Positions 1,084 to 23,694 of a DNA stretch of 40,358 nt are shown piece after piece. Each line of letters begins with the position of its first letter. The stretch's first letter is position 1. The notes beneath the pieces were generated by a model. It did no database searches and had not been told where the DNA came from. It saw nothing but the letters and a program-made list of their open reading frames with translations. The stretch spans positions 1-40,358 of IMG/VR virus record IMGVR_UViG_2877953467_000003. One strand, written 5' to 3'. The position numbers and the translations under genes are program-made. Origin of the DNA: a virus. Lineage: Duplodnaviria; Heunggongvirae; Uroviricota; Caudoviricetes.

Positions 1084-1244
1084 TTTGTCAGTTCGCTCCC
1101 ATCCGTACCAGTCCGCAAAATCCCCTGAATATCAAGCCTTCCGTATATTCACGGTTCGTCATGGTTCGCTTCAGATCGTTGACAGCCGCACTCCATGACG
1201 GGTAAAAAGTGGATAAAATAATTTTACCCACCGGATTTTTACCC

Positions 1245-2402
1245 ATGCTCACCGTTAAGCAGATTGAAGCAGCAAAGCCGAAAGAAAAACCATACCGCCT
1301 TCTCGATGGTAATGGCCTATACCTTTATGTCCCTGTATCAGGGAAAAAGGTATGGCAGCTTCGCTACAAGATTGACGGTAAGGAGAAAATCCTGACTGTA
1401 GGAAAATATCCGCTAATGACTTTGCAGGAGGCAAGAGATAAAGCATGGACCGCGAGGAAAGACATCTCGGTTGGCATCGATCCGGTAAAAGCGAAAAAGG
1501 CTTCGTCTAAGAACAATTCCTTTAGTGCGATTTACAAGGAATGGTACGAGCACAAGAAGCAAGTCTGGTCAGTAGGCTATGCAACTGAACTTGCAAAAAT
1601 GTTTGATGACGACATTTTACCTATCATCGGCGGCCTTGAAATTCAGGATATTGAGCCGATGCAACTGCTGGAAGTAATCCGCAGATTTGAAGATCGCGGT
1701 GCAATGGAGCGAGCCAACAAAGCCCGCAGAAGATGCGGCGAGGTTTTCCGTTACGCTATTGTCACCGGAAGGGCTAAATATAACCCGGCACCTGACCTTG
1801 CTGACGCCATGAAGGGATACCGCAAGAAGAACTTCCCGTTTCTTCCTGCAGACCAGATCCCTGCATTCAACAAAGCACTGGCAACATTTTCAGGAAGCAT
1901 CGTATCGCTCATTGCGACCAAAGTTTTACGCTACACAGCCCTAAGAACGAAAGAGCTTCGTTCCATGCAATGGAAGAACGTCGATTTTGAAAACAGGATT
2001 ATCACTATCGACGCCAGTGTGATGAAGGGCCGCAAGATTCATGTTGTTCCTATGTCAGACCAGGTGGTTGAACTTCTCACTACGCTAAGCTCCATCACCA
2101 AACCAGTCTCAGAGTTTGTTTTTGCCGGGCGCAACGATAAGAAAAAGCCAATTTGCGAGAACGCGGTGCTACTTGTGATCAAACAAATCGGCTATGAGGG
2201 TCTGGAAAGCGGTCACGGATTCAGGCATGAATTCAGCACGATTATGAACGAGCACGAATGGCCTGCTGATGCTATTGAAGTGCAACTGGCACATGCCAAC
2301 GGCGGATCTGTGCGCGGGATTTACAACCATGCTCAGTATCTCGATAAACGCAGAGAAATGATGCAATGGTGGGCGGACTGGATTGATGAAAAGGTGGAGT
2401 GA
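1245..2402 (+). CDS. intS: Tyrosine-type phage integrase (KplE1/CPS-53 IntS-like)
   Basis: Adjacent to argW; N-terminus MLTVKQIEAAKPKEKPYRLLDGNGLYLYVP typical of P4/IntS-family integrases; ORF track gives 1209 as the earliest ATG, 1245 is the likely start. Confidence 0.88.
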   Translation: MLTVKQIEAAKPKEKPYRLLDGNGLYLYVPVSGKKVWQLRYKIDGKEKILTVGKYPLMTLQEARDKAWTARKDISVGIDPVKAKKASSKNNSFSAIYKEWYEHKKQVWSVGYATELAKMFDDDILPIIGGLEIQDIEPMQLLEVIRRFEDRGAMERANKARRRCGEVFRYAIVTGRAKYNPAPDLADAMKGYRKKNFPFLPADQIPAFNKALATFSGSIVSLIATKVLRYTALRTKELRSMQWKNVDFENRIITIDASVMKGRKIHVVPMSDQVVELLTTLSSITKPVSEFVFAGRNDKKKPICENAVLLVIKQIGYEGLESGHGFRHEFSTIMNEHEWPADAIEVQLAHANGGSVRGIYNHAQYLDKRREMMQWWADWIDEKVE

Positions 2403-18522: not shown

Positions 18523-20256
18523 TTAAAGCGAGCGGATCCCATAGGACTCAATGTGGTCAGACAGCGTGTCTTCTTTCTCGTACAGCATGGCTCTGCCAAC
18601 CGCCATAATCAGCGCAACTGCACCATCGATTTTGTTTTCCGCCTGCTCTTTGACGGGCTTCACCACATCATCGTTACCCGGAATGGTTTTGCCGACCACG
18701 TTGCCGATACACCAGGTCATGATGGGATTGCCATCATGATGAAAGCGCCCCGATTCAATTGCCGCTTCCAGCTCTTTCATCGGGTCGGACATGTTGGTGT
18801 AGTTCTGAATGATAGTGACGGGATTCAGGTCTTCATCAGCAAGGTCATGTGACAACCCGGTCGCCCCGAAGGGGTCGATGGGTGACTCACTGACCGGGCT
18901 GATTTTGTTCGCCGCTTTGGCCTCCTCGAGGATGTAGCGATAATCCACCTCCGCACCATCGGTAACGGTCAGAACGCCCATTTCCACCCATTTCTGAAAG
19001 CGTTCGGCTGTCCGGCGATCTTCATTTTTCTCGACGCTGTACACCGTGTCATACGGTACCCAGAAACGCGGGGCCACACTGTAGTAATGCGTTTTACCGT
19101 CAATCTCGCGGGTATAAAGTCGCGCCATGCTGTTCATATCCAGCTTACGCGCCAGGTCAAAGGCCAGAATGCACGGCTGTCCCTCGAACTGCTCAAGGGT
19201 CAGTGATTTATCCTCGCAGCTCTGCCAGCTCACCAGGTTGAAATACGCCGAACGTGCCGACACCCAGATATTGAGGTGTTTTGTTTTAAAGACGTTTGCC
19301 AGACGGGCGTTATTTTTCGCACGCTGCTGCTGACTTAACAAAAATTCGCGATAAACCGACACGCCAATATTTGGATTGGCTTTTTCCAGCACCTGCGGGT
19401 CGGTCCAGTCGTCACCTTCATCAACGGTATAGATGATCCCGAACAGTTCATCGTTGGGTACCGACCCGTTGAGCATCTCGATAACTTCCCGCCGCTTGTC
19501 GTAGCACGGCCCCTCAATGTTGTACCCGGCAGTAGTAATGGCCCACATCAGTGGCTGACGTCGCGCCCCCATCCCGGTAAGCATCGTGGTGTAAAGCGCA
19601 TCGGTGGCGTGCTCGTGATATTCATCCACCACCGCACAGTGGGGTGATGATCCATCACCGGGGTTACCGATCAGCGGTTCAAACCGCGCGCCATCCTCCG
19701 GACGGTTCATGTTTGAGGCGTTAACCTCAATCCCGAACGCTTCCGTCAGCATGGGTGTGCGTTTACACATCAGTCGCGCCGGGCGAAAGACTTCCCACGC
19801 CTGTTTCTCTGTCGTGGCACCGGAATACACTTCCGCGCCAAACTCGTTATCACAGGCAAAACAATACAGGGCGACACCGGCAGAGATTGCCGATTTGCCG
19901 TTCTTACGGGGGATTTCGGTATACACCTCCCGGAAGCGGCGCAGCCGGGTACCTTTATTGACCCAGCCAAACGCACAGCAGATCACAAAGAGCTGCCACG
20001 GCTCCAGCGTGATGGGCATCCGTTTGAATGCCCACTCACCCTTGGTATGCGGCAACAGCTGAATAAATTTGGCGGCCCGTTCAGCCAGGTCCTTGTCGAA
20101 GCGGTAACGAAACGACTTACTTTTTTCCGCCATCAGGTCATCAAGATGGCGCTGGCAGGCCTGAATCACAAACTGGCAGGCCACAATCTTTCCGCGCACG
20201 ACATCACGGGCATACTGATTGGCTGCATTTACGTTGGGGTAAGATTTCCGGCTCAT
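18523..20256 (-). CDS. Terminase large subunit
   Basis: 577 aa; ATPase plus nuclease architecture; follows TerS. Confidence 0.9.
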
Positions 20257-20269
20257 GATTCGATGATTT

Positions 20270-20764
20270 TCAGATTGTCAGAAACGGGTTAGTGGCTTTC
20301 TTCTTCCCCGCCAGGCCAATCAGACGCTGGCGGCTGCTGGGGTCGAGTCCGAGCATTGCCCCCGTGCTGCTCATCTCGGACTCCTGTTCTTTTTTGGCGG
20401 TCAGCTCCGGATTTTTGACCATGCCGCCCATTGCACCGGTGATGGTGTTGCCCTGTCTGGCAATATTTTTCACGGCACGTCGCCAGAACTCATAGGCTAC
20501 GCACCACCGCTCAAGTACCGCCAGGTCAGTCACGCACAGCAGGCCCTGACCGCAGAGTTCTTTGGTTGTCAGTTGCCACATGATCGTGGCGAGAGGGAGA
20601 TCTTCTTCAGCGAACCACTCCGGTGGCTCAACACCTTTGATGGGCGTAAAAACAGGTTCATCTTTATTCAGGGCTCGCTTGCCGGGGTTTCCGGCCAGCG
20701 CCTTGCGCGCCGTTGGCTTGGGGCGACGCCCGGAACGCCCCGCCGTTCCAGCCATATGCGGCAC
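20270..20764 (-). CDS. Terminase small subunit (P27 family)
   Basis: 164 aa with basic N-terminus [18 protein letters not shown]; upstream of TerL. Confidence 0.8.
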
Positions 20765-20880
20765 TCCTGGTTAAATTTCATTTTTCGCGGGTATAAAAAA
20801 ACGATGGGGCGGGCAGTCCGGAAGACGTCAGGTCACAGAGATTTGACCCGCCCCTCCCCTCAGACAGTTGAGAGTTATTA

Positions 20881-21231
20881 TCACTTAAGCCGTTCACGGG
20901 CCGTCTTCGCCTTATGGCACGGCCAGCACAGACTCTGCAGATTACTGTCGGCATCAGTGCCGCCATGTGCTTTAGGGATGATGTGGTCAACGGTTTTCGC
21001 TTCACGCGCCACACCAGCACGCAGACATAACTGACACAGGCCTTTGTCACGCTTCAGCACACGCGCGCGGATAACGTCCCACTTCGAACCATAACCGCGC
21101 TGGTGACGGGACTGACCTGGCTTATATTGCGTCCAGCCTTCGCTTTTGTGGCTTTCACAATAGCCTGACGGATCTGTGGTGGTATGGCGGCAACCGCGAA
21201 CACGGCAGGCTTTTGGGATTCGTGGCGGCAT
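20881..21231 (-). CDS. HNH endonuclease (terminase-associated)
   Basis: Cys-rich zinc-binding motifs plus DHIIPKAHGG HNH signature; located just upstream of TerS as in HK97-like cos phages. Confidence 0.85.
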   Translation of the reverse strand: MPPRIPKACRVRGCRHTTTDPSGYCESHKSEGWTQYKPGQSRHQRGYGSKWDVIRARVLKRDKGLCQLCLRAGVAREAKTVDHIIPKAHGGTDADSNLQSLCWPCHKAKTARERLK

Positions 21232-21517: not shown

Positions 21518-22060
21518 TTAATTGGTGAGTCCGGGGATTACGGTTTGCCCGTGCTGTTCAAGGCGTTCAATTCTAGCCAGCAGCTGTGGCTTCTTAATTT
21601 TTCCCCAGCGATTTAGCAGGCGACCTGACATGCTGGCAACATCCTTCTCTTTCATGTACTCCAGCATTACGGCATTTCGCTCTTCTTCAAATTGACGATT
21701 ACCAACCTGAAGCATGGCGTACATCCAGTTGAATGCGTTGATGTAAGCAATTTTGATACGCATTGCTTCTTTTTTGGTGTAGGACATAACCAAAAGCATC
21801 AACCCATCCTTACGTAGCCGATAGAATTTTTGTGGCTTACCATTCTGTAACTCATTGTTTTTATAGCAAACCTCAAAATTGAGTTTTGCATCAAACTCTT
21901 CAGGACAAGCAGCGATAGTTCTTTCTACATCACGCACAACGTTGTCATGTCGCTTACGAAATGCTTTCGCCACCATAAATGAATCGGTGACAGGGTCATT
22001 GTTGGTAATAAAAACCAGTTCTTTGAAATCAATGCCGTCAACGATAGTTGGATAATTCAT
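21518..22060 (-). CDS. Rha family phage regulatory protein
   Basis: 180 aa; N-terminal Rha-like region (DGIDFKELVFITNNDPVTDSFMVAKAF); between lysis and packaging modules. Confidence 0.65.
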   Translation of the reverse strand: MNYPTIVDGIDFKELVFITNNDPVTDSFMVAKAFRKRHDNVVRDVERTIAACPEEFDAKLNFEVCYKNNELQNGKPQKFYRLRKDGLMLLVMSYTKKEAMRIKIAYINAFNWMYAMLQVGNRQFEEERNAVMLEYMKEKDVASMSGRLLNRWGKIKKPQLLARIERLEQHGQTVIPGLTN

Positions 22061-23538: not shown

Positions 23539-23614
23539 TGGTGCTGGTTAACGGACTTGAACCGCTACCCATTCGCTTACAAGGCGACCGCTCTACCATT
23601 GGAGCTAAACCAGC
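23539..23614 (-). tRNA. Phage-encoded tRNA, anticodon UGU (Thr-like)
   Basis: Hand-folded 76 nt cloverleaf on minus strand: perfect acceptor GCTGGTT/AACCAGC, anticodon loop CUUGUAA, T-loop TTCAAGT, CCA end; one mismatch in anticodon stem. Confidence 0.55.
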
Positions 23615-23619
23615 ATATT

Positions 23620-23694
23620 TGGCGGGACAGCGTGGACTCGAACCACGATAAGAAGGTTAACAGCCTTCCGTAATGACCTTTATACGACTGACCC
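23620..23694 (-). tRNA. Phage-encoded tRNA, anticodon GUU (Asn-like)
   Basis: Hand-folded 75 nt cloverleaf: anticodon stem GAAGG/CCTTC, loop CUGUUAA, T-arm CGTGG-TTCGAGT-CCACG, CCA end; acceptor stem has one U-U mismatch. Confidence 0.5.

Follow-up and report, generated by a model that had tools for sequence, protein, structure and literature searches.

The window, by which we mean the whole stretch of viral DNA analysed here (40,358 nucleotides), carries a packaging module on its minus strand. An HNH endonuclease gene and the small terminase gene terS border the repeat region that is the subject of this analysis, and the spacer between them spans 20756-20880. As read from open reading frames and Pfam matches, the gene order is HNH - cos - terS - terL, which is that of HK97-like HNH-assisted packaging. 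The genes, listed in the direction of the minus strand, are the following.

21518-22060, minus strand: Rha-like gene
20881-21231, minus strand: HNH endonuclease gene, 116 aa (Pfam PF01844, E 5e-16)
20270-20755, minus strand: terS, small terminase of the P27 family, 161 aa (PF05119, E 2.5e-21)
18523-20256, minus strand: terL, large terminase (ATPase domain PF03354, E 8.5e-26; nuclease domain PF20441, E 5.3e-34)

The start of terS was set by comparison with the annotation of SfV: it is the ATG at 20755 and not the GTG at 20764, and an AGGAG at 20768-20764 precedes this ATG. The encoded TerS is 99.4% identical to orf1 of SfV. In the HNH protein, a zinc ribbon (CxxxxC...CxxH) at the N terminus is followed by an HNH domain that carries CxxC...CxxC. 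Its best relative of solved structure is the HNH endonuclease of Geobacillus virus E2 (GVE2; 5h0m, E 4.7e-11, full-length alignment), and the counterparts H82/N97/H106 of the window protein align with the catalytic residues H93/N108/H118 of the GVE2 enzyme, so that the catalytic motif is intact. The gene order, the HNH motif and the ATPase and nuclease domains of TerL support the original prediction that this is an HK97-like module in which an HNH protein assists packaging.

Several tRNA genes lie elsewhere in the window. A tandem pair on the minus strand, tRNA-Thr(tgt) at 23539-23614 and tRNA-Asn(gtt) at 23620-23694, stands upstream of the lysis genes, and such a tRNA-Thr/tRNA-Asn pair has been described in SfI downstream of gene Q (PMC3636060). 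A tRNA-Arg(cct) gene at 1009-1083 adjoins an open reading frame of integrase size (397 aa, 1209-2402, plus strand), and this end of the window is probably the attachment end of the prophage. The integration site would then differ from that of SfI, which is thrW (PMC3636060).

The inverted repeat that first drew attention to the spacer is present. On the plus strand its arms are GGGGCGGG at 20806-20813 and CCCGCCCC at 20847-20854; they are perfectly complementary (8/8), and they are separated by 33 nt, as against the roughly 32 given before. Of 2000 dinucleotide-shuffled versions of the spacer, 6.1% contained a perfect inverted repeat of 8 bp or more whose arms were no more than 60 apart, and repeats of this kind also occur in 31 of 322 tiles of 125 bp from the window. 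The inverted repeat alone is not beyond chance. Across the repeat, the minus strand folds no better than its shuffles, either as RNA (z = -1.2) or as DNA (z = -1.45).

When the region was compared with phage records by megablast, the record ends of SfV, SfIV, SfI, SfII and ST64B were found to fall inside the spacer. Joining the last 58 nt of the SfV record to its first 67 nt reproduces the window spacer with 100% identity, and the ends of SfIV and SfI match it too. For SfI, which is near-identical, virion DNA has been analysed by run-off sequencing with primers in the HNH and terS genes, and 10 nt, 5'-TGCCCGCCCC-3', were missing relative to the prophage (PMC3636060). In the window this 10-mer occupies 20806-20815, where it is made up of the terS-side repeat arm plus CA. 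If positions are counted from the nick in the top strand (the window minus strand), so that window position 20805 is +1, the 10-mer and its flanks are identical between the window and SfI except for A versus G at +1. Because a gap was seen in both SfI run-offs, where 5' overhangs would have given an overlap, we infer that the ends are 3' overhangs.

The ends of more distant phages agree with this assignment. HK97 has 10-nt 3' overhangs (PMC11331095, PMC9410871), and its record ends in ...ATGAC CGCCGCCAAA and starts with GTTTG.... A 3' extension, 5'-CGCCCGCTTC-3', has been reported for phi644-2 and phiE125 (PMC2920897), and the phi644-2 record ends in ...GGGAC CGCCCGCTTC and starts with GTCAAA.... 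When the sequences are aligned without gaps, the cohesive 10-mers of SfI, HK97 and phi644-2/phiE125 occupy the same columns. For the window, the SfI gap and these relatives point to a 10-nt 3' overhang, whose position is homologous as judged from the alignment. In view of the identity to SfV, the mapped ends of SfI and the agreeing ends of HK97 and phi644-2/phiE125, the original prediction was correct in placing a cos site between the HNH and terS genes. The cos site of the window is already published, as the SfV/SfI-type site. Taken as a whole, the reading of 20756-20880 as the cos of an SfV/SfI-type lambdoid prophage on the minus strand, with 10-nt 3' ends TGCCCGCCCC and with the roles of TerS, HNH and TerL proposed below, appears highly probable. 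Headful (pac) packaging was rejected on the discrete ends of SfI, phi644-2 and HK97, which share this cos layout; in the SfI paper, SfI and SfV are contrasted with the pac phages Sf6 and SfX (PMC3636060).

The same spacer is found in 1120 of 5426 complete E. coli genomes, in most of them at 90-100% identity. The cos assignment places exact genome ends for a prophage type present in about one fifth of complete E. coli genomes, which is useful for annotation. Many E. coli prophages are cryptic, the present one may not be inducible, and the site could in principle be a relic that is never cut, carried by a defective prophage. We consider this unlikely, as HNH, terS and terL are all intact full-length open reading frames with normal domain matches, every cos subsite described below fits the consensus, and the spacer recurs in so many genomes at such identity.

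Relatives of the locus were collected by scanning species-representative genomes with a TerS profile, which gave 80 loci with TerS 49-99% identical to that of the window, from Enterobacterales, Pseudomonas, Burkholderia and others. Anchored on CCGCGAAA, the 80 loci align without gaps over about 90 bp, from the G-rich block (G-block) to a conserved box. Along these 90 bp, the elements follow one another in fixed register: the G-rich block, about 31 bp, AC/YG at the bottom-strand nick (the slash marking the junction), a C-rich 10-mer, the top-strand nick, a T-tract and the ACCCGCGAAAAATGAAATTTAA box. Their positions in the window are given here.

20847-20861, minus strand: G-rich block GAGGGGAGGGGCGGG, which contains the HNH-side repeat arm (20847-20854); up to 2.0 bits at -54 to -42 (20859-20847) across 80 unique relatives
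20839-20846, minus strand: TCAAATCT motif that immediately follows the G-block; the relatives conserve it in the form T.AAA(T/G) at -41 to -36
20816-20817, minus strand: AC dinucleotide at -12/-11, immediately before the cohesive end on its 5' side; the bottom strand (window plus strand) is predicted to be nicked between 20815 and 20816, in CA/GT
20806-20815, minus strand: cohesive end 5'-TGCCCGCCCC-3' (GGGGCGGGCA on the plus strand), placed by the SfI run-off gap and by alignment with the 3' extensions of HK97 and phi644-2
20795-20801, minus strand: T7 tract at +5 to +11; 1.3-1.9 bits at +7 to +12 across relatives
20771-20792, minus strand: box ACCCGCGAAAAATGAAATTTAA at +14 to +35, putative TerS recognition site, near-invariant and in fixed register to the nick

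At the junction, AC is found in 92.5% and AC[CT]G in 87.5% of the 80 unique relatives. The cohesive 10-mer is C-rich but variable, with 33 variants among the relatives.

One relative departs from this layout. In Vibrio phage Pel (locus L092, 335-701), whose TerS is 51% identical, 6 nt separate terS from the end of the HNH gene, which is annotated as 'holin', and the cos therefore cannot lie between these two genes; no cos motifs are evident in the 140 nt upstream of the Pel terS. A separate scan of IMG/VR returned only loci with TerS 99-100% identical, which were uninformative for conservation and revealed a mosaic joint at the cos. Among the 52 unique spacers of this set, the interval 20756-20815 is 92-100% identical to the window, with 96-100% identity at all of its columns except 20768. 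Over the compared region, 20756-20905, identity falls on the HNH side, to 0.1-0.8 beyond 20866, the G-block excepted. Megablast similarity to Klebsiella phages also begins at about 20819. This pattern suggests a clustering of recombination breakpoints where packaging cuts the DNA.

The GC-rich stem, followed on the minus strand by ATCG and T7, might also be taken for an intrinsic terminator of the lysis-HNH transcript, either overlapping the cos or standing in place of a cos function. The T7 tract starts 4 nt beyond the 3' arm, perfect hairpins of 7-10 bp with loops of 6-8 nt and T7 directly after them (-14 to -20 kcal/mol) occur in Xenorhabdus relatives, and the mean folding z of the family is -0.73 in the sense direction versus -0.08 in the antisense direction. 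In the window, however, the loop would be 33 nt long and 4 nt would separate the stem from T7; the folding z of the sequence is the -1.2 given above, a terminator scan finds nothing in the region, and RNAalifold yields no consensus structure on 78 relatives. Moreover, late transcription in lambdoid phages must read through the cos into terS, and relatives without a preceding hairpin conserve the T-tract as well, which fits DNA binding or bending, as in HK97. A terminator is thus a very unlikely account of the window element, while a secondary terminator role in some lineages is possible. In Xenorhabdus loci L120-L126 and L137, GC-rich hairpins at -22 to +11 enclose the AC/CG junction; these are terminator-like and are absent from the window. 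An RNA element of any other kind in the spacer was rejected, as the only Rfam match at a permissive threshold was a chance one to SgrS, inside the HNH gene, ARAGORN found no tRNA in the spacer, though GGGTCAAATCC is slightly T-arm-like, and RNAalifold lent no support either.

Record ends in this phage group are a poor guide to the position of the cut. The SfV (U82619.2) and SfIV (KC814930.1) records are linearised between 20822 and 20823, 7 nt upstream of the SfI-mapped end, and the SfII and ST64B records are opened elsewhere in the spacer, at 20880 and 20771. Since these ends differ from one another, they are unreliable as cos coordinates. That the cos is indeed here but is cut at the SfV/SfIV GenBank breakpoint (20823/20822), where two deposited records start and end, and not at 20815/20806, seems highly improbable. 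The SfIV record comes from a prophage assembly and had its ends set by analogy, and the SfI paper calls the cos mechanism of SfV 'postulated' and itself reports direct sequencing of ends (PMC3636060). The ends of HK97 and phi644-2 align with those of SfI and not with the SfV breakpoint, and the conserved AC/YG lies at 20817-20814, not at 20823.

The inverted repeat fares no better as an element in its own right. Its terS-side arm is the cohesive end itself, and its HNH-side arm forms the 3' part of the separately conserved G-rich block, 41 bp upstream of where the top strand is nicked. Only 4 of the 80 unique relatives keep 8/8 arm pairs. In the same 80 the arms do not covary (a mean of 4.24 of 8 pairs versus 4.43 for permuted pairings), and the longest complement in any register averages 5.1 versus 4.97 for permuted pairings. 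Even among loci with TerS 99-100% identical and with identical terS-side sequence, the HNH-side arm becomes GGGGGAGG, GGGGGGGG or GGGGGTAG. The centre of the dyad (about 20830) lies 14-24 bp from the nicks, which are not centred between the arms.

A symmetric terminase recognition site or a cruciform, with cleavage in the 33-bp spacer between the arms, would suit the perfect 8/8 pairing and the opening of the SfV and SfIV records inside that spacer, between 20823 and 20822. We give it hardly any credence, given that few relatives keep the pairing, that the arms do not covary, that one arm varies in close relatives while the other side stays the same, that repeats of equal length arise by chance in 6% of shuffles, and that the cohesive end mapped in SfI is one arm and not the centre. 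The repeat is incidental and results from a chance complementarity, in this lineage, between the G-rich block and the C-rich cohesive end. A functional role for the repeat as such is therefore unsupported, with the nicks off-centre and the complementarity neither conserved nor covarying, and the repeat is unfit as a diagnostic mark of such sites. The reliable marks are the AC/YG junction, the C-rich 10-mer, the ACCCGCGAAA box and the upstream G-block.

With the site read as an SfV/SfI-type cos, roles can be proposed for its parts. Relatives from E. coli to Burkholderia, Pseudomonas and Moraxella carry the box in near-invariant form. Its register to the nick is fixed, while between 29 and 102 nt separate it from the start of terS, which argues for a function in cos rather than for a translation signal. 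In HK97, TerS binds CTAACCCGATTTTTT at +15 to +29, a site that requires both G21 and the A-tract; the motor is made to stall at cos by TerS, and the HNH protein gp74 stimulates cleavage (PMC11331095, PMC9410871). The window box contains CCCG, CG and A5, is flanked by T7 and stands at a position equivalent to the HK97 TerS site, and for this reason it is assigned to TerS, as a putative site, by its position and conservation. The box comparison covered the relatives with a P27-family TerS, in which the box was seen, and HK97, which has a positional analogue.

Neither sequence nor fold showed homology between the window TerS and HK97 gp1. BLASTP between the two gave E 6, HK97 gp1 has no PF05119 match, and a phmmer search of the window TerS against PDB sequences returned nothing. 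An AlphaFold model of the window TerS (pLDDT 75) had no Foldseek match in the PDB at E <= 0.001; the best had E 1.7, and none was a terminase. The analogy between the TerS sites therefore stays positional.

For the HNH protein, the nick sites of enzymes encoded next to cos are informative. These are AC^CG for N.phiGamma and N.phiE2, RT^CGV for N.phi3626 and RAC^CR for N.phi105 (PMC3592412, Xu and Gupta 2012). The HNH nick falls in the strand complementary to the one written, and AC^TG is a secondary site of N.phiGamma (PMC3592412). Phage Gamma ends in ...CCGTAC/CGCCGCCCC, and its own enzyme nicks AC^CG. Phage phi3626 ends in ...AAGGT/CGCAGTGTC, with an annotated 3' single-stranded end of 9 nt, and its own enzyme nicks RT^CGV. 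In both phages the motif of the phage's own enzyme thus lies exactly at the junction of duplex and overhang, on the right strand, and the AC of the junction is replaced by GT in phi3626, the one phage whose enzyme prefers RT^CG. The spacer between HNH and terS in GVE2 has GGGAC/CGGCGGGGG; of the GVE2 record, whose ends lie within the HNH gene, only this internal spacer was used. The window junction is GGAC/TGCC. Gamma, HK97 and phi644-2 thus have AC^CG at the junction, SfI and the window have AC^TG, and phi3626 has RT^CG. In phi105 the annotated 7-nt cos and the predicted HNH nick are 1 nt apart, and the ends of Lrm1 were not interpretable.

Since the motifs of these enzymes match the junctions of their own phages, we propose that the HNH nick is placed on the plus strand between 20815 and 20816, and the TerL nick on the minus strand between 20806 and 20805. 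The co-variation of a 4-5 bp specificity with the duplex/overhang junction would favour the HNH protein as the cutter of the bottom strand over a mere stimulator of TerL. Against this stand the 1-nt discrepancy in phi105 and the behaviour of other packaging HNH proteins, as HK97 gp74 and, reportedly, those of an S. aureus phage and of Lactococcus sk1 were non-specific when tested alone. In addition, one paper (PhageTerm) reports the CGCCGCCCC ends of the Wbeta group as 5' overhangs, contrary to the 3' polarity.

That HNH and TerL each nick one strand is an idea already in the literature. The authors of the HK97 work suggest that one strand may be cut by TerL and the other by gp74 (PMC11331095, PMC9410871), and this split was restated in a later paper. 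The authors who determined the nick sites in 2012 made no link to cos and speculated on a relief of supercoiling (PMC3592412). An incomplete literature search turned up no paper stating that HNH nick sites match cos junctions; this match and the widely conserved G-block are the only parts of the present analysis that may be new. The match offers a direct and testable answer to a question raised by the HK97 literature, namely which nuclease cuts which strand at an HNH-dependent cos. It would also help to predict from sequence alone the cos ends of prophages and of the satellites that hijack them.

The G-block is found 29-32 bp upstream of the junction in HK97, phi644-2, Mcat29, Gamma, phi3626 and GVE2 as well. 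Among the Gram-positive HNH phages, phi3626, Gamma, GVE2 and phi105 have a G-block 29-31 bp upstream of the cohesive ends. In the window, the G-block and the TCAAATCT motif lie about 31 bp (three helical turns) upstream of the proposed HNH nick, in the DNA that would be packaged last. They may form a further protein-binding subsite for positioning or termination, perhaps one like the cosQ of lambda, although a cosQ-like role is a guess by analogy.

The process that we propose would run as follows. Concatemers produced by replication would be cut at this site into unit genomes. TerS, threaded on the DNA, would lock onto the ACCCGCGAAAAATGAAATTTAA box, which lies 14-35 bp downstream of the nick in the top strand, together with the T-tract that flanks it, and the stalled complex of terminase and HNH protein would then make two staggered nicks. 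The zinc-ribbon HNH protein would nick the bottom strand (window plus strand) at AC^TG, between 20815 and 20816. The nuclease of TerL would nick the top strand (window minus strand) 10 nt downstream, between 20806 and 20805.

A broader reading joins these observations, and we hold it tentatively, at slightly less than even odds. It states that HNH phages of Gram-negative and Gram-positive hosts share one ancient cos design in fixed register, that the HNH protein is a sequence-specific nuclease of the bottom strand, and that the G-block is a universal subsite. Under the same tentative reading, the elements would be ordered as the G-block, 29-32 bp, the HNH nick motif, a C-rich end of 9-10 nt and the TerL nick.

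Compared with known systems, the site as interpreted here resembles the cos of lambda (cosQ-cosN-cosB) in being tripartite, with an upstream element in the DNA packaged last, a nick site and a downstream region bound by TerS. Lambda differs in its 12-nt 5' overhangs, its lack of an HNH protein, its use of IHF and its unrelated TerS (gpNu1), and its gpA makes both nicks, at a partly symmetric cosN. A lambda-type cos was rejected for the window, where the dyad centre at about 20830 is 14-24 bp off the nicks, an HNH gene is present and the relatives have 3' overhangs.

The enzymes N.phiGamma, N.phiE2 and N.phi3626 share with the window HNH protein the domain layout and the position of the gene next to cos and terS, and their nick motifs match the AC/YG of the window site. 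They come from Gram-positive phages, and the AC^TG junction of the window corresponds to the secondary site of N.phiGamma; the specificity of the window enzyme is a prediction.

The cos of HK97 has the 10-nt 3' overhang that is predicted for the window, and it is like the window site in its C-rich cohesive end and in its AC/CG at the bottom-strand nick, where the window has AC/TG. The two also share a G-run with ATCAAATCT about 32 bp upstream of the nick, a CCCG and A/T tract about 15-30 bp downstream, where TerS binds in HK97, and a terS start about 50 nt after the nick. They differ in that HK97 gp1 is not a PF05119 protein and has no detectable similarity to the window TerS, and in the sequence of the box. 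Unlike the window HNH protein, gp74 has no N-terminal zinc ribbon and is reported to be non-specific. The HNH gene is 319 bp from the right end in HK97 and 65 bp from the bottom-strand nick in the window.

The Burkholderia phages phiE125, phi1026b and phi644-2 are closer. Their TerS is of the P27 family and 54% identical to that of the window, they have the G-block, and their 10-base 3' extension CGCCCGCTTC lies in the same columns. Their box, GCCCGCGAAAAATGAAATTTAAA, is identical to the window box at 21 of 22 positions, whereas the cohesive end differs at 4 of 10 positions and the junction is AC/CG versus AC/TG in the window. Closest of all are SfV, SfI, SfII and SfIV of Shigella flexneri, in which the order HNH-cos-terS-terL is the same and, the A versus G at +1 of SfI aside, the cos region itself shows no difference from that of the window.
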